DNA from: Nitrosospira multiformis ATCC 25196
Lineage (GTDB): Bacteria > Pseudomonadota > Gammaproteobacteria > Burkholderiales > Nitrosomonadaceae
Direction: 5' to 3'
Length of the DNA: 32,000 nt
NCBI RefSeq assembly: GCF_000196355.1
Contig: NC_007614.1
Span: 2,220,001 to 2,252,000, forward strand
Part shown: positions 24,919-31,217 of the stretch, piece after piece
How the letters are laid out: each line of letters starts with the position of its first letter
Position numbering within the stretch: the first letter of the stretch is position 1
Position numbers and translations under genes: made by a program
The notes under the pieces: generated by a model
The model's database searches: none
Seen by the model: only the letters and a program-made list of their open reading frames with translations
What the model was told of the DNA's origin: nothing

Positions 24919-25005
24919 GCCCAGATGGCGGAATTGGTAGACGCACTAGGTTCAGGTCCTAGCGGTGGCAACACTGTGGAGGTTCGAGTCCTCTTCTGGG
25001 CACCA
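24919..25005 (+). tRNA. tRNA-Leu (anticodon CAG)
   Basis: GCCCAGATGGCGGAATTGGTAGACGCACTAGGTTCAGGTCCTAG...GGAGGTTCGAGTCCTCTTCTGGGCACCA. The anticodon loop is TT-CAG-GT, the variable arm is long, and the CCA is encoded. Confidence 0.95.
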
Positions 25006-25189
25006 ATCAAAACATTTCCGCAGATTCCACCTGTACTGACTGTACCGGCCCAAAAGGCACAAGGAGTGCTGCTTTTCTCAGTATAGCAGGACAGCGCATC
25101 GCATTCCGGAATTACCCCTGCTATCCCTTTTCCCCTTAGTTACGCTCAGGCTCTGCGGTGCGATTTTAGCCAGAAGATGCCAAGGAATA

Positions 25190-25215
25190 GATAGCTGTAA
25201 AATTTTACAGCTATC
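25190..25215. promoter_or_regulatory. 26-bp perfect palindrome with a CTG-N10-CAG core (lux-box-like)
   Basis: GATAGCTGTAAAA|TTTTACAGCTATC is exactly self-complementary. The inner 20 bp AGCTGTAAAATTTTACAGCT matches 14/20 positions of the V. fischeri lux box ACCTGTAGGATCGTACAGGT as I remember it. Confidence 0.5.
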
Positions 25216-25672
25216 CACGCCCTGCGATCTGTTGTCTCATAACATGCTCCTGTGCCAAAAGAAATGAGACTCTGACTACCGCAACAGGTTGTCTTGCTGC
25301 ACATGAATGACGCTTTGGCGAATCCGGAAGGCAATGTGTTTCATCCGACACCAGAAGGCGCAGGTAGGCATGCTCGATAAGCTGATTGGGATAACTGGCT
25401 GGTAAAGTGAATCCGATTCTCGCCGTTAAAGACTTGTGTTCAAGAAGTCCAGCTTGCGTTTCTATCATGATCCGTAAATATATTCCAGCTGGGCTGTTAT
25501 CTTTGGTTACGAACTCTGGCAAGGGATCCAATAAGGCGAAAACAACGAGATTCTACCGGGAAAGCAAGGATATTCTGACGAAAATCCCTGCTGGCACGCC
25601 GCTCGAATTATCCCCTCCGGGGGCGATTTTAAATTCTTTCGACTTGAATTACAGTTGCTTGAGCTCATCCAG

Positions 25673-26455
25673 ATGAACGATATTGTGACCGCCTTTAACG
25701 AATATTTCGAAGTTGTCGACGCCGACACTCCGGAGCGATTGCAGGATGTATTTCGCCTTCGTTACCAAGTGCTCTGTATCGAGCAGCGTCTGCCTGGATT
25801 TGAAGCTTCACGCTATCCTGATGGGTGCGAATGTGACAGTTACGATGCTCATTCCTCTCATATGCTTCTTCGTCACCGTCCATCCGGCGATTTTGTCGGA
25901 ACCGCTCGCCTGATACTCCCGGATCCGCTGACTCCCGAAAAACCCTTTCCTATCGAACAGCATGCGCAACTGGATCCATTTTTCAATATCAACCGGTTAC
26001 CTCGGCAACATGCAGCCGAAGTATCTCGCCTGCTCGTCGTACGCCGATTCAGGCGGCGTAAAGGGGATAGCGGCGGGCCAGAAAATGAAATAGTTGTTGA
26101 AGACAGAGCTATAGAAAAACCACGCCGCTTCCCTCACCCGGTCCTCGCGCTTGCTGTTGGCCTGATCCGCATGTCCGCTGCTCATCACATAACTCATTGG
26201 CTATCGATCATGGACCCTGCCCTGAACAGGCTGTTAACCCTCTATGGGCTCCAGCACGATCCCGTGGGCCCATTGATTGAGCATCACGGTCAGCGTCGAC
26301 CTTATCACGTCGACTTGTCCGCCATGTTGAACAGAATGCATGAAAGTCATCCTCTGATTTGGGAACTTGTTACTGATTTCGGCAGGAGCCTGCCAGCACC
26401 TCCAGGGTCGGCTCCAGTACCTATCTCCACCGTTCTTGCTGATATTGAAAAATAA
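25673..26455 (+). CDS. LuxI-superfamily/GNAT acyltransferase resembling the PEP-CTERM/exosortase-associated N-acyl amino acid synthase family
   Basis: FNEYFEVVDADT...VFRLRYQVLCIEQ...E.DSYD.HS.HMLLRHRPSGDFVGTARL...AAEVSRLLVVRRFRRR fits the pattern I recall for the exosortase-associated acyltransferase family (TIGR03694-like). I chose the start at ATG 25673; the ORF track uses TTG 25655. Confidence 0.7.
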   Translation: MNDIVTAFNEYFEVVDADTPERLQDVFRLRYQVLCIEQRLPGFEASRYPDGCECDSYDAHSSHMLLRHRPSGDFVGTARLILPDPLTPEKPFPIEQHAQLDPFFNINRLPRQHAAEVSRLLVVRRFRRRKGDSGGPENEIVVEDRAIEKPRRFPHPVLALAVGLIRMSAAHHITHWLSIMDPALNRLLTLYGLQHDPVGPLIEHHGQRRPYHVDLSAMLNRMHESHPLIWELVTDFGRSLPAPPGSAPVPISTVLADIEK

Positions 26456-26609
26456 TAATCGCATATTCGCGGCCCTTCATCTAGCCCGCCTTCGCGAGTT
26501 ATCGTCTATCGCTAGTTCTCATTCCGAAAGTCCAAACACTCGATCCCCGCAAGGATAAGACTGCTCAAACCATTCAAGCACGCATATTCCTGTCGGGTGA
26601 GTAAAAATT

Positions 26610-27059
26610 GTGACAATTAAAATAAAAATCGGTCATCTGATTTCGTCTATATGCCTGCTACTCGGCCTTTTATTCATGGCGGGTAAAACGTGCGCAGTCG
26701 AGCCCTACGAGATCATCACGAACTCGGGCGTCCACGAAAAAACCCTTTCCAAGAACGCCTTGCGCGCCATATTCGGCATGCGCCTGCATACATGGCCGGA
26801 CGGCAGTCCCATTCATGTGTTCGTACTTCCGGATGAAGCCCCCCTGCACATCGCGTTCTCCAAGGAAAAACTGAATGTTTTTCCCTATCAACTCCGCGCA
26901 GCATGGGACCGGCTGGTGTTCTCGGGTACAGGACAGGCACCGGAAACAGTCGCTTCTCCAGAGGAGATGCTTGCAAAAGTCGGTAGCACACCCGGAGCAA
27001 TTGGCTATTTAACCCGATCCAGAATGGATGGCAGTGTAAATGTTCTACACGTCAAGTAA
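26610..27059 (+). CDS. Small secreted PstS/PBP-like-2 domain protein (149 aa, about half the size of a periplasmic binding protein)
   Basis: The signal peptide is ...LLGLLFMAGKTCA|VEP. LRAIFGMRLHTWPDGSPIHVF...VGSTPGAIGYL fits the phosphate-binding-protein-like fold motif (PGAIGY). The start codon is GTG. Confidence 0.7.
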   Translation: MTIKIKIGHLISSICLLLGLLFMAGKTCAVEPYEIITNSGVHEKTLSKNALRAIFGMRLHTWPDGSPIHVFVLPDEAPLHIAFSKEKLNVFPYQLRAAWDRLVFSGTGQAPETVASPEEMLAKVGSTPGAIGYLTRSRMDGSVNVLHVK

Positions 27060-28287
27060 CCCCATTCCCCGCTGTTTGACGCGAGCGATTATCCGGCTCG
27101 TCGTGGTGGGTGCTGCCCTTTCGAATTGTATTGCTTACGCGCAAAAACTGCCGATTCCCCAGAACCTGCCGAACAACCTGCAAATACATGGTTTTGTTAG
27201 CCAGAGTTGGCTCAAGAGCACGGACAACAATAACGTTTTCGGGAAAAGCAGTTCCGATAGTGGAAGTTTTGACTTCAGGGAATTGGGACTGAATGCTTCC
27301 ATGAGGCCCAAGCCCAACCTCCAGTTTTCGGCTCAGATGATTTCCCGCACTGCGGGAAAAGGAAGTCCGGGCAATATCCGGTTCGATTACGGATTCATCG
27401 ATTATGCGTTTCTATCGGAAGAAAACAGCAAGATAGGAATACGCCTGGGCAGGATGAAGAATCCGCTCGGCTTTTACAACGACACACGCGACGTTCCCTT
27501 CACGCGGCCCAGCATACTTTTACCTCAATCCATCTACTTCGATCGCACGCGCAAATTGGGGATTGCAGCAGATGGGGTACATTTATACGGTGAATACCGT
27601 TTCGAGCACGGCGTCCTGTCTTTTCAGGGTGGACCGGTACGTCCACTAGTCAGAGGTGCTGAAGCAGAAGTAGCGCTGTTGGGCCAGGGGATGCCAGGCC
27701 ATCTTGCTCCAGACATCTCCTATATTGGCCGTATAAGCTACGAACTCGACGAGGGCCGGCTTCGTTTTGCAGTCAGCGGAACGAATTTGAACATAGATTA
27801 TGACCCCGCAAGCGGGGACCGGCTTGGCGCGGGCTCAATTCGCTTTACACCTCTCATTTTCTCCGCGCAATATAACGCAGAACGCTGGAGTTTCACTTCG
27901 GAATACGCGATACGCCATTTCGAATATAAAAATTTTGGCAGGGCGGCCCTCAATCTGGATTTCTTTGGCGAAAGCTATTACCTTCAGGGAGCTTATCGAA
28001 TCACGCCGGAATTGGAAGCGATCGCTCGCTACGACGTACTGTATACGGACAGTAATGACCGCAGCGGAAAAAAATGGGCAGCGGCTACAGGCGGCGATCC
28101 GCATCGGCGGTTTGCTAAAGACATTACCGTAGGGTTGCGCTGGAACGTCACGCCTGAGTTCATGTTGCGCGCCGAGTATCACCGCGTGAACGGAACAGGC
28201 TGGCTTTCGACTCTTGACAATCCCAATTCGGGAGACCTTTCACCGCATTGGAATCTGTTTTCCATTCTCGGCTCCTACCGGTTCTAG
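27040..28287 (+). CDS. Outer-membrane beta-barrel (porin-like) protein
   Basis: The signal peptide ends ...AALSNCIAYA|Q. Alternating beta-strand-like sequence runs throughout. The C-terminal signature is ...LGSYRF. ATG 27040 overlaps the upstream gene by 20 nt. In-frame TTG 27076 would give a more typical signal peptide. Confidence 0.7.
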   Translation: MFYTSSNPIPRCLTRAIIRLVVVGAALSNCIAYAQKLPIPQNLPNNLQIHGFVSQSWLKSTDNNNVFGKSSSDSGSFDFRELGLNASMRPKPNLQFSAQMISRTAGKGSPGNIRFDYGFIDYAFLSEENSKIGIRLGRMKNPLGFYNDTRDVPFTRPSILLPQSIYFDRTRKLGIAADGVHLYGEYRFEHGVLSFQGGPVRPLVRGAEAEVALLGQGMPGHLAPDISYIGRISYELDEGRLRFAVSGTNLNIDYDPASGDRLGAGSIRFTPLIFSAQYNAERWSFTSEYAIRHFEYKNFGRAALNLDFFGESYYLQGAYRITPELEAIARYDVLYTDSNDRSGKKWAAATGGDPHRRFAKDITVGLRWNVTPEFMLRAEYHRVNGTGWLSTLDNPNSGDLSPHWNLFSILGSYRF

Positions 28288-28289
28288 AC

Positions 28290-31217
28290 ATGCTGCAGGA
28301 TAAGTATTTTCATAATCAGGCTATGCAGAGAAATGGAGCGATAGCACCTGAAAAGCCCCAAAAATTTCTGGGACTGAAATGGAAAGTTTTGTTGCTGAGC
28401 AGCCTTATACTGATTGCCATCGTAGTCTCATTCACTGGGATTACCTATCTGAGCCTGATGGATGACTTCGAGAGCCAGAGAAATGCCCAGCACCAGCGCT
28501 ATGCCAAGGAAGTTGAAGGACTGATCGACCAGGTTTCGATAAATTTGCATCAACTCGCCGGATTGATTCCTTTCCTGGAAGGAATGGATAAAAGTCTGCT
28601 CTCAGGTAACAAGGAATACGTCACCCAAGCATTTGATCCATATTGGTCGCCTTTGCAACTCAATAAAGGTATCGAATTGCTGCGTTTTTACGATAGCTCA
28701 AACCAGCAATTGGCAGGATGGGGAACTTCCCAGCCTAATACTTACGACGCATTGATGTCAGCCTGGGTGCACGAGGTGAATGCCCAGGAAAAGCCGATGA
28801 GCCATCTCAGCTGCCCCACCAGCTGCATGCAGTTTGCCGTGGCACCCTTGCTCGTGGAAGGTAACAACGTCGGCGTGATCGTCATCGGAACGCCCCTGGT
28901 CGATGTGATTCTGGGTTTCAAGGATATCTCGGGTGCCGATATCGCATTGCTGGTGAGGGAAAAAGGCGATTTGCCCGAAAGCAACAAGGTGAAAATTGCA
29001 AACTGGGATGTCACGCTTGCGGCACACAGCAGGGAAATGAACATTACTGTTCTGGATGAAGTTGCAGCGAATTATCCGGACCTGGAGAGTCTGGAGGAGG
29101 GCATCCTGGTTTCGTGGCACGATAGACACCTCCAGATAAAGCCGCTGTTTCTGGAGAGAATGGCCGTGTCGGAAGATGGTGCTCGCTTCATGGTTGTAAC
29201 TGACATCACCTCCACGATCCGCACCATTCACAGCTCGACCCAGCAAAACATGATAATCGGCGTGGTCGGGCTCATATTCTCTGAAATACTGCTGTTCATC
29301 ATTCTCACCAAGCCACTGTCGAGGCTCAAGCACATCGTTTTTACTCTCCCTCTTCTGGCCCGCAGCAGTTTCAAGAATTTTCGCCTGGAGCTTCGCTCTG
29401 CCGGCCAGAAACGATGGATGAAAGATGAAATTGACCTGCTGGATGAAACAGCGGTGGCCCTGTCACATCAACTGGAGAAGCTCGAGGATCAGGTGGCGGA
29501 CAGGACCCGTATACTGGCCAGCAAGATGGACGAGCTAAGCAAGGAGAGGGATTTCATTAACAATCTGCTGGACATTGCGCAAGTAATCGTAATCACGCAA
29601 AAGGCGGATGGCGAGATTCTCACACTCAATGCCTATGGTGAAACGCTTATTCAGTATACGGAAAAAGAACTGCAGGGAACGCCCTTTCTCCATCTTCTGG
29701 CACTCGATGGAAATCTGCACGACCTTCCCGTTCACCTGGAAGAGGTGCGGTGCCAACGAAGAGACCAGCTTCGGCACGAAGCGAATGTCGTATGCAAGGA
29801 TGCTTCCATTCGTAATATTCTGTGGCTGCATTCACGCCTCACCCGGCACAGCGAGGATGACCCCGCAATGTTATCGGTGGGTCTCGACATGACGGAACAC
29901 AAGCGTGCTGAAGGGCGTCTTGCCTGGCTGGCGGATCATGATCCGCTCACGGATCTTTTCAATCGCCGCCGCTTCCAGGAAGAACTGGAACAGATGCTGA
30001 ATCTTGCCGCGCGTTACGGGTACTCGGGAGCCTTGCTCTTTTTTGACCTTGATCAGTTCAAATACATCAACGATACCAGCGGGCATCAGGCGGGGGATGC
30101 CTTGCTTAAAATGGTCGCGCGTCTGCTGCTTGGCAATATTCGCAGCGTCGACATACTTGGCCGCCTGGGAGGCGATGAATTCGCAGTGATTTTGCCCCAA
30201 ACGACAGCCGAAGGGGCGATAGAAGTGGCAAAAAATACGCTTGCGAGCCTGAATCAGGGAAAGATTACGATAAATGGTCGCACTCATAAAGCGTCAGCCA
30301 GCGTCGGTATCGCACTTTTTCCGGAGCACGGCAGCAATGTCCATGATCTCCTGGCCGCAGCCGATCTCGCCATGTATCAGGCAAAGGAAGCCGGACGAGG
30401 AGGATGGCATTTGTTTTCTGACGAAGAGAAAACACGTGAACGCATGCATACTCTTGTCTATTGGAAGGAGAAGATTGAGTATGCTCTTTCACACGAACGT
30501 TTCCTGTTCTATTTCCAGCCCATCATGCATGTTCGACGCAGGACCATCGATCATTACGAGGTGCTGCTTCGCATGATCGACAATGATGGAACTGTTCTTG
30601 CACCCCAGTTTTTCATCCCCGCCGCGGAACAGACAGGTCTTATTCATGCCATCGACCATATGGTTTTACGTAAATCCATTGCGCAATCAGCTGAAATACA
30701 ACGCGCCGGTCAGTGCATCCGTTTTTCCATAAACTTGTCGGCGCATGCATTTCACGATCCGGAACTGCTGCCGATACTGAAAGATGCATTTGCCGAGTAT
30801 GGCGCGGATCCATCGAATTTCATGTTTGAAATAACCGAGACAGCAGCGCTTGAGGATTTGCCCGCGGCGCGGGAACTCATGGAGATGATTAAAAAGCTGG
30901 GCTGCAGTTTCACGCTGGATGATTTCGGTGTCGGTTTCTCCTCCTTCTATTACATCCGGCAACTGCCGATCGATGTTGTAAAGATCGATGGCTCCTTCAT
31001 ACGAAATCTGGCAGACAGCCCCGATGACCAAATACTGGTGCAGGCTTTGTGCGATGTGGCAAGGGGATTCGGAAAGAAGACAACGGCGGAGTTCGTGGAA
31101 AATGCAGCGACCTTTTCAATCCTTGAGAAAATGCAGATCGACTATGCCCAGGGATTTTTGATTGGAACGCCTTCTCCCGCTTATGACACATCGTTCAGCG
31201 ATTTCGCGAAGATGTGA
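28290..31217 (+). CDS. Transmembrane sensor with periplasmic domain, PAS, GGDEF and EAL domains (dual diguanylate cyclase/phosphodiesterase)
   Basis: TM1 is VLLLSSLILIAIVVSF, followed by a periplasmic region of about 270 aa and TM2 IIGVVGLIFSEILLFIIL. The GGDEF motif is intact (RLGGDEFAV), with the I-site RSVD 5 aa upstream. EAL motifs are EVLLR, FQPI, EITE, DDFGVGFSS, KIDGSF and QGF. I chose the start at ATG 28290, 2 nt after the porin stop; the ORF track uses 28248. Confidence 0.9.
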   Translation: MLQDKYFHNQAMQRNGAIAPEKPQKFLGLKWKVLLLSSLILIAIVVSFTGITYLSLMDDFESQRNAQHQRYAKEVEGLIDQVSINLHQLAGLIPFLEGMDKSLLSGNKEYVTQAFDPYWSPLQLNKGIELLRFYDSSNQQLAGWGTSQPNTYDALMSAWVHEVNAQEKPMSHLSCPTSCMQFAVAPLLVEGNNVGVIVIGTPLVDVILGFKDISGADIALLVREKGDLPESNKVKIANWDVTLAAHSREMNITVLDEVAANYPDLESLEEGILVSWHDRHLQIKPLFLERMAVSEDGARFMVVTDITSTIRTIHSSTQQNMIIGVVGLIFSEILLFIILTKPLSRLKHIVFTLPLLARSSFKNFRLELRSAGQKRWMKDEIDLLDETAVALSHQLEKLEDQVADRTRILASKMDELSKERDFINNLLDIAQVIVITQKADGEILTLNAYGETLIQYTEKELQGTPFLHLLALDGNLHDLPVHLEEVRCQRRDQLRHEANVVCKDASIRNILWLHSRLTRHSEDDPAMLSVGLDMTEHKRAEGRLAWLADHDPLTDLFNRRRFQEELEQMLNLAARYGYSGALLFFDLDQFKYINDTSGHQAGDALLKMVARLLLGNIRSVDILGRLGGDEFAVILPQTTAEGAIEVAKNTLASLNQGKITINGRTHKASASVGIALFPEHGSNVHDLLAAADLAMYQAKEAGRGGWHLFSDEEKTRERMHTLVYWKEKIEYALSHERFLFYFQPIMHVRRRTIDHYEVLLRMIDNDGTVLAPQFFIPAAEQTGLIHAIDHMVLRKSIAQSAEIQRAGQCIRFSINLSAHAFHDPELLPILKDAFAEYGADPSNFMFEITETAALEDLPAARELMEMIKKLGCSFTLDDFGVGFSSFYYIRQLPIDVVKIDGSFIRNLADSPDDQILVQALCDVARGFGKKTTAEFVENAATFSILEKMQIDYAQGFLIGTPSPAYDTSFSDFAKM

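Follow-up and report, generated by a model that had tools for sequence, protein, structure and literature searches.

What does a 26-bp perfect palindrome do in the long gap between a tRNA-Leu gene and a gene for an N-acyl amino acid synthase (NAS) of Nitrosospira multiformis ATCC 25196? We followed up this element in a stretch of 32,000 nucleotides (NC_007614.1, positions 2,220,001 to 2,252,000 of the forward strand; hereafter the window, with positions counted from its first letter), in which an earlier note made from the sequence alone had likened the palindrome to a lux box, the operator of LuxR-type regulators. We found that the palindrome exists as described, lies under strong sequence-specific constraint, is linked to the NAS gene, recurs elsewhere together with a second element at a fixed spacing and resembles lux boxes. 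The reading that we favour, and regard as roughly an even bet, is that it is a lux-box-type operator of a dimeric regulator, most likely of the LuxR family, activating a promoter directed towards the NAS operon. This was also the leading idea of the earlier note; it is the best-supported reading, if an unproven one. What is new here is a lux-type operator in an unusual setting, ahead of a PEP-CTERM-associated NAS and a cyclic di-GMP (c-di-GMP) module.

A lux-box-like palindrome upstream of the NAS gene

The sequence GATAGCTGTAAAATTTTACAGCTATC at positions 25190-25215 is its own exact reverse complement over 26 bp, with the coordinates and the sequence precisely as first noted. Perfect palindromes of this length are expected by chance about 5e-4 times per 32 kb. 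No second copy was found in the window at up to three mismatches, nor in 100 shuffles of it, and the pattern CTGT-N8-ACAG occurs once in the 32-kb window, at the palindrome itself. The core has the dyad geometry of a lux box, an inverted repeat of about 20 bp with CTG-N10-CAG, a spacing that had been claimed and is borne out, AGCTGTAAAATTTTACAGCT being a perfect dyad; the frame fits TGT-N8-ACA as well as CTG-N10-CAG. Only the inner 22 bp (25192-25213) are kept in relatives, and the outer GA...TC is peculiar to this strain in an alignment of 22 loci, so that the 26 bp of the earlier note hold as a self-complementary sequence and not as the conserved unit. The palindrome lies 458 bp ahead of the acyltransferase ATG (position 25673), in agreement with the roughly 460 bp given before, and the tRNA-Leu gene (24919-25005) stands on its other side.

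The palindrome was scored with a lux-box matrix built from 44 published boxes (PMC8553950, Supplementary Table 3). It reached 18.6 bits, and its variant with a central AATC 19.4 bits, compared with a leave-one-out median of 14.3 for the real boxes and a maximum of 16.3 for the shuffled window. The runner-up in the window scored 11.0 bits, 7.6 bits behind the palindrome. The 14 of 20 matches to the Vibrio fischeri lux box, given in the earlier note, are exact against the published luxI box (MJ1, ACCTGTAGGATCGTACAGGT). Both sequences are 20-bp dyads that combine CTG-N10-CAG with TGT-N8-ACA, and both precede a gene of the LuxI/NAS acyltransferase superfamily. They differ in that the downstream gene here is not a LuxI-family acyl-homoserine lactone (AHL) synthase and that conservation spans 22 bp; the dyad centre would lie at about -47 here, whereas that of the V. 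fischeri lux box is at -42.5. The closest published boxes are those of afeI in Acidithiobacillus ferrooxidans (AGCTGTCAACCTTGACAGCT) and aidA in Ralstonia solanacearum (ACCTGTTTACTTTTACAGCT), with 16 of 20 positions identical; they share the outer arms AGCTGT...ACAGCT with the palindrome, differ from it in the central 8 bp and precede AHL-regulated genes of characterised LuxI/R systems.

The core is invariant in syntenic loci

Three orthologous loci were retrieved through the NAS protein and not through the pattern. All three carry the core TAGCTGTAAAATTTTACAGCTA, with one central substitution in locus L007, in surrounding DNA that is barely alignable. A pattern scan with TAGCTGTAANNNNTTACAGCTA, using one genome per species, returned 39 loci, 19 of which belong to Nitrosospira, Nitrosovibrio or betaproteobacterial metagenome-assembled genomes (MAGs) and have the site between the RNase R/tRNA-Leu genes and NAS; a metagenome scan added 13 loci of this same type. 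Across about 35 syntenic Nitrosospira and Nitrosovibrio loci the inner 22 bp (TAGCTGTAA-N4-TTACAGCTA) are invariant apart from the central four bases, which read AATT, AATC or AGAT. The earlier note had proposed looking for the palindrome in relatives with the same acyltransferase, and the 22-bp core is indeed kept there. NAS proteins of the site-bearing syntenic loci are only 58-93% identical and the leaders are otherwise scrambled and unalignable, with the distance from the palindrome to the NAS ATG varying from 430 to 900 bp and that from the tRNA to the palindrome from 187 to about 610 bp. The site is therefore under strong sequence-specific constraint, and its invariance amid diverging flanks argues that it acts as a protein operator, almost certainly one bound by a dimeric regulator.

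The same core accompanies luxR and luxI in the Xanthomonadales

Adjacency to luxI or luxR is common among lux boxes, though not obligatory. The neighbours of the Nitrosospira site are tRNA-Leu and the TIGR03694 (NAS) gene, and such adjacency was found only for counterparts in the Xanthomonadales. Dokdonella and related Xanthomonadales carry this 22-mer 45-160 bp past the stop codon of a LuxR gene of Autoind_bind-GerE architecture (loci L018, L032, L055, L059 and L065). Two further loci, whose LuxR proteins are 51% (L082) and 55% (L083) identical to that of L018, retain AAGCTGTAAGAACT[TG]ACAGCTA. The box AAGCTGTAAGAACTTACAGCTA is kept directly after luxR homologues that are mutually 51-61% identical, at seven loci without luxI. 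At L084 the LuxR homologue is 47% identical to that of L018 and luxI is present; here CCCTGTAAGAATTTACAGCTG and the stop codon of luxR overlap, and the ATG of luxI comes about 60 bp later, so that the box has the classical position for autoinduction. This linkage to luxR and luxI makes CTGTAA-N4-TTACAG a true lux-type box in one lineage at least. The Xanthomonadales spacer box (L084, CCCTGTAAGAATTTACAGCTG; Dokdonella, AAGCTGTAAGAACTTACAGCTA) has this core unchanged, the Dokdonella box matching at all 18 specified bases, and a conserved -10-like element follows at a fixed distance as it does in Nitrosospira. The difference is that the Xanthomonadales box is physically linked to luxR (at L084 also to luxI), while the Nitrosospira site has no luxR nearby.

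At the luxI-less loci of the Dokdonella type (L018:960-1132, L032, L055, L065, L082:5107-5285 and L083:4740-4915) the box is followed by a conserved cATgCT and then by a long hairpin (about 55 nt), in which several base changes are compensatory, and a T-rich run, without an Rfam match. This hairpin may represent a small RNA under LuxR control or just the terminator of luxR.

Recurrence at other loci and a promoter-like second element

The element is not confined to the tRNA-Leu locus. In a second clade (clade 2, labelled Nitrosospira sp. MAGs at NCBI; L085-L089) the NAS cluster occupies another chromosomal position, beside thiamine and glyoxalase genes, with the order glyoxalase, NAS1, NAS2, periplasmic binding protein (PBP), porin and dCache-PAS-GGDEF-EAL. 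Two of the five clade-2 loci (L085 and L087) carry TACCTGTAAT[AT]TCTTACAGCTA 224-284 bp upstream of NAS1, followed by TTGTCTAATGrC at the same spacing as a conserved element of the N. multiformis leader, block 2 (Table 1); the clade-2 box and block 2 lie inside a stretch of about 200 bp missing from L086, L088 and L089. Since the element recurs before NAS1 in this clade, it is tied to NAS expression and not to the tRNA or RNase R. The tandem NAS genes of clade 2 are spaced by about 700 bp of non-coding DNA.

Identical 22-mers were also found in three other contexts. One precedes, by about 155 bp, the gene for a multi-PAS histidine kinase paired with a CheY-like regulator (L039, L044 and L081), the kinase being divergent from exbB-exbD-tonB; another lies 231 bp upstream of a PAS-HisKA_3 kinase and a Response_reg-GerE (NarL-type) regulator in Nitrosospira sp. 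NpAV (L016); the third lies between ubiH and dusB (L025 and L074).

Beside the core two further stretches are conserved at fixed positions. The immediate flanks read AATwnn on the left and TyCAyG on the right, and block 2 contains CATAAC (25238-25243), which follows the 22-bp core at 24 nt and is a candidate for a -10 element. The motif YATARC stands exactly 24 nt past the core at the kinase and dusB sites as well (CATAGC, CATAGT and TATAGC). Its presence at offset 25-30 in the NAS, kinase (L039/L044/L081) and dusB (L025/L074) contexts has a chance probability of about 1/512 per independent locus, and in the NAS and kinase contexts it is on the side of the downstream gene. From its place, TyCAyG may serve as a -35 element. 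The arrangement of core, TyCAyG and YATARC looks like a promoter with a weak -10 element and the dyad centre near -47. Known lux boxes, which LuxR-family proteins usually bind when AHL is present, tend to overlap or adjoin the -35 region, their centres falling at about -40 to -65. Orienting the sites by the central asymmetry of AATC was tried and dropped, because at L016 and L025 it conflicts with the side on which block 2 lies.

A third conserved island of about 30 nt, block 3, stands at variable distances, 160-440 nt from the palindrome and 190-350 nt from the ATG. It reads TAAAG-N16-CGTT, which we take to resemble promoters of the extracytoplasmic function (ECF)/PvdS type, and it is possibly a second promoter or regulatory site.

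At the NpAV site (L016:2376-2417), between flgL and the PAS kinase/NarL-type operon, the dyad is lengthened to 32 bp (TTTGATAGCTGTAAAATCTTACAGCTATCAAA), and the pattern scan returned no perfect site at the NAS locus of this strain. An unrelated metagenome contig of 44% G+C (L075:2131-2243) carries two copies of TAGCTGTAATTAATTACAGCTA 91 bp apart within a tandem repeat.

Which protein binds the site?

Several observations weigh against a LuxR-activated promoter for the NAS operon. The site is 430-900 bp from the ATG, compared with about 60-100 bp in classical luxI promoters, and block 3 may be the NAS gene's own promoter. No LuxR-type gene is present among the main open reading frames (ORFs) of the window, as the earlier note had observed, nor in any fetched Nitrosospira locus, where tblastn with LasR and the Dokdonella LuxR as queries found none; likewise, none of the best 120 relatives of the Dokdonella (L018-type) LuxR is named Nitrosospira, these comprising only Xanthomonadales and one Desulfuromonas. 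The gene-ward direction of the promoter is tentative, since YATARC is on the side away from dusB at L025 and L074 and matches weakly at L016. The YATARC sequence lacks the T at -7, and a simple sigma-70 scan called no promoter at block 2. Strict pattern scans yield perfect sites only, so that the invariance of the core is partly a matter of ascertainment; it is not ascertainment alone, because the protein-retrieved loci carry the site and the named isolates among the NAS matches (Nv6, Nl5 and N. tenuis) were all recovered by the pattern scan too. In favour of a LuxR protein, an NmuI/NmuR system has been reported for N. multiformis (review PMC13188143). A near-identical AGCTGTAA...TTACAGCT upstream of nmuI, if present, would favour the LuxR reading.

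The main rival, possible but in our judgement unlikely, shares the architecture of a dyad beside a promoter and changes only the binder and its signal, the palindrome being the operator of another dimeric regulator, either a GerE/NarL-type response regulator as at NpAV or an unlinked TetR-type or other repressor. The NpAV site, 231 bp before its kinase and regulator genes, has the typical arrangement of an autoregulated pair, yet a perfect site before that pair was seen in this one genome only. The half-sites TGTAAG/CTTACA are those of the GacA/UvrY upstream activating sequence, TGTAAG-N6-CTTACA; both hexamers are present in the variants with a central AATC or AGAT, and a helix-turn-helix of the GerE type is common to both families. 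The hexamers are 6 nt apart in the GacA/UvrY box, however, and 2 nt apart here, and the dyad geometry (TGT-N8-ACA and CTG-N10-CAG) is that of lux boxes and not that of the GacA box (TGT-N12-ACA). Rfam detected no RNA of the Rsm/Csr type downstream. This rival draws further support from the failure of both searches described above to tie an AHL-type LuxR to Nitrosospira and from the members of the putative regulon (sensor kinases, exbBD-tonB and a c-di-GMP enzyme), which are not diagnostic for quorum sensing, whereas a lux-matrix score above the median of real lux boxes and the linkage of the same core to luxR/luxI in the Xanthomonadales speak for a LuxR protein. The palindrome and block 2 were also compared by eye with the consensus sequences for sigma-54, FliA, IHF, Fis, the DnaA box, TyrR, LacI/Cra and LysR, and each of these readings was dropped because the spacing was wrong or key bases were missing.

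LexA is a minor rival that we consider improbable: the palindrome would be an SOS box repressing a small, unannotated transcript in the gap that is inducible by DNA damage. LexA of Betaproteobacteria recognises CTGT-N8-ACAG, and the E. coli consensus is TACTGTATATATATACAGTA. The palindrome has the identical CTGT-N8-ACAG frame, perfect and with an A/T-rich centre, and is the sole site in the window with such a score on a LexA matrix (16.5-18.1 bits, within the range of 6.7-27.5 and below the median of 20.2 for real boxes), a score that also counts against the LuxR reading; the matrix was made from 19 E. coli boxes and may not represent the motif of Nitrosospira itself. To this extent the lux-type operator of the earlier note needs qualifying: the site is operator-like, scores highly on the lux matrix, is linked to NAS and shares its core with a luxI promoter of the Xanthomonadales, but its CTGT-N8-ACAG shape fits LexA also. 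Other features separate the two. The bases before CTGT are invariably AG at independent Nitrosospira loci and TA in the LexA consensus, and the arm is CTGTAA in place of the usual CTGTAT; on the lux matrix, canonical SOS boxes reach 7-10 bits, compared with 18.6-19.4 for the palindrome, and the Xanthomonadales counterpart sits in a luxR-luxI spacer. None of the five gene contexts contains an SOS or DNA-repair gene (the neighbours being the synthase 458 bp away, sensor kinases, exbB and dusB), no conserved ORF stands beside the site, and the second element places the site upstream of the gene-ward -35, which suits activation and not repression by LexA. LexA would become less likely if the recA/lexA operators read TACTGTAT...ATACAGTA and departed from the palindrome at its invariant flank positions.

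An element acting as RNA, be it a terminator or processing hairpin of tRNA-Leu or a stem-loop in a 5' untranslated region, is very improbable. As RNA the palindrome would fold into an 11-bp stem with a 4-nt loop (-17.2 kcal/mol, z = -5.3), and the only varying positions are the four central loop bases. An intrinsic terminator was nevertheless rejected, as no T-run (U-tract in the RNA) follows the hairpin on either strand. More than 40 copies without a compensatory change in the stem point to sequence-specific constraint, although an invariant stem does not in itself disprove pairing. The U-tract-less tRNA-Leu terminator considered in the earlier note is also contradicted by a separate terminator-like hairpin after the tRNA (25056-25080), by the variable distance to the tRNA (187 to about 610 bp) and by sites that have no tRNA. 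The hairpin at 25056-25080, 110 nt before the palindrome, is the likelier terminator of tRNA-Leu.

A recombination or attachment site at the border of a tRNA-linked island, another alternative raised at the outset, is hardly credible. The site does adjoin a tRNA gene, and close strains differ in mosaic fashion in the segment on its right, with 41-75% nucleotide identity in the leader and NAS gene within flanks of 85-100% and an identity drop that starts just past block 2 in some comparisons. Against this, RNase R, tRNA-Leu, synthase operon and aroC keep their order throughout the genus, and neither an integrase nor a mobility gene accompanies them; the tRNA 3' end was not seen to be repeated, some loci carry the 22-mer without any tRNA, and there is no second copy at the right boundary of the variable segment.

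A model for control of the NAS operon

In the LuxR-type reading that we favour, we infer four points from the sequence comparisons: which protein the regulator is, that it activates and does not repress, where transcription starts and that the operon is transcribed as one unit. A homodimeric helix-turn-helix regulator would bind the 22-bp dyad TAGCTGTAA-N4-TTACAGCTA; the binder would most likely be a LuxR-family protein with a GerE-type helix-turn-helix, for example NmuR, the AHL receptor reported for N. multiformis. The bound dimer would recruit RNA polymerase and so activate the weak promoter beside the site, with TyCAyG at the place of the -35 element, YATARC 24 nt past the core and the dyad centre near -47. 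Transcription would start near 25250, and the transcript would run through the long, poorly conserved leader into NAS and probably on through the PBP, porin and dCache-GGDEF/EAL genes. The same regulator would govern a small regulon including the PAS histidine kinase/response regulator pair, and block 3 may serve as a second, proximal control point.

A more speculative extension, which we rate as a long shot, is that NAS itself is the signal synthase and the palindrome its autoinduction box, the receptor sensing an N-acyl amino acid or an AHL and the divergence of alleles reflecting 'pherotypes'. If so, a receptor of the LuxR type or another type would induce the synthase together with the periplasmic binding protein, the porin and dCache-GGDEF/EAL; a non-AHL acyl signal would be coupled to c-di-GMP and to PEP-CTERM/exopolysaccharide biology in ammonia oxidisers, and the sharp NAS divergence between near-identical strains would mark signal 'pherotypes'.

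PEP-CTERM-associated N-acyl amino acid synthases are widespread. We know of no physiological role or regulation established for them, nor of a defined quorum-sensing regulon in Nitrosospira. A genus-wide invariant operator before a NAS/c-di-GMP operon and a sensor kinase is a directly testable handle, and the 22-bp sequence is a probe for its regulator. It opens the question of whether acyl-amino-acid production and biofilm signalling in soil ammonia oxidisers respond to cell density, AHLs or DNA damage. Should the binder be a LuxR protein, AHL signalling would be linked to a second family of acylated molecules; should it be another protein, it would define a new regulator specific for lux boxes.

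The gap and the neighbouring genes

The features of the region are collected in Table 1.

Table 1 Features of the palindrome region in the window
Feature	Position	Strand	Basis
tRNA-Leu, anticodon CAG, left border of the gap	24919..25005	+	ARAGORN; Rfam tRNA, 53.8 bits
Terminator-like hairpin GGCACAAGGAGTGCT with T-rich tail GCTTTTCTCA	25056..25080	+	Pattern scan, consensus match only
26-bp perfect palindrome, core 25192-25213 TAGCTGTAAAATTTTACAGCTA; proposed operator of a dimeric, lux-box-type regulator	25190..25215	.	
TyCAyG flank directly after the core, at a -35-like place	25214..25220	+	22-locus alignment; similar at the PAS-kinase sites
Block 2, ATCyGTTGTCTyATArC	25227..25243	+	22-locus alignment; fixed distance from the core
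Block 3, GGTAAAGTGAATCCGATTCTCGCCGTTAAAG, consensus GATAAAGTGaAGCnGATTCyCGCCGTTAA	25401..25431	+	Conserved island of about 30 nt in the leader
PEP-CTERM/exosortase-associated acyltransferase (NAS)	25673..26455	+	TIGR03694; Pfam Acetyltransf_5
Small periplasmic protein, PBP-like, conserved together with NAS	26610..27059	+	Pfam PBP_like_2, 26.9 bits, borderline; synteny
Porin-like outer-membrane protein, overlapping both neighbouring genes	27040..28287	+	Pfam Porin_O_P, 26.6 bits; synteny
dCache_3-GGDEF-EAL protein of c-di-GMP turnover, encoded at the end of the unit	28248..31217	+	Pfam and NCBIfam; synteny

The gap is gene-free, as had been noted. Six-frame stop-to-stop segments compared across 22 leaders revealed no conserved ORF, and a hidden protein gene was rejected, the only 'conserved peptides' stemming from the DNA of the palindrome and block 2; long stretches without a stop occur in the longer leaders and appear random. 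Neither Pfam nor NCBIfam gave a match for the two longest ORFs of the gap. A known RNA was likewise rejected, as Rfam matched nothing besides the tRNA in the gap, either at the gathering threshold or at E ≤ 10.

The acyltransferase matches TIGR03694 with 301.7 bits (cut-off 111.95) over model positions 2-239 of 241 and is named N-acyl amino acid synthase in several sources. Its sequence is 100% identical to that of an N. multiformis protein. Its match to Pfam Autoind_synth is confined to the N-terminal 60 residues and, at 20.1 bits, stays below the threshold of 24. By these family models the acyltransferase is a superfamily relative of LuxI and not a member of the LuxI family, and it is in the wider sense that its first description as a LuxI-superfamily acyltransferase stands.

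The order of genes in the window is dnaB, rplI, rpsR, priB, rpsF, rlmB, rnr (RNase R, minus strand), tRNA-Leu, the gap, NAS, and the PBP-like, porin-like and dCache_3-GGDEF-EAL genes, followed by aroC on the minus strand. The three genes after NAS overlap one another and are separated from it by 155 bp. The whole order is retained in loci whose NAS is only 68-80% identical.

When positions 25250-26600 were compared with L020, L021, L023, L030, L056, L062 and L067, the NAS gene together with the following 150 bp proved to be an allelic hot spot. Among N. multiformis-like strains it shows 41-75% nucleotide and 62-65% protein identity, whereas both flanks show 85-100% nucleotide identity and flanking proteins are 92-97% identical. 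Its boundaries are sharp, at about 25700 and 26600, and within the leader (25250-25650) two haplotypes assort independently of the NAS allele.

In two close strains (L001:12618-15546 and L003) a pair of ORFs (331 and 655 aa) is called for the dCache-GGDEF-EAL gene (28248-31217 in the window), instead of a single one of 975-989 aa; the split may be a frameshift or an assembly error.

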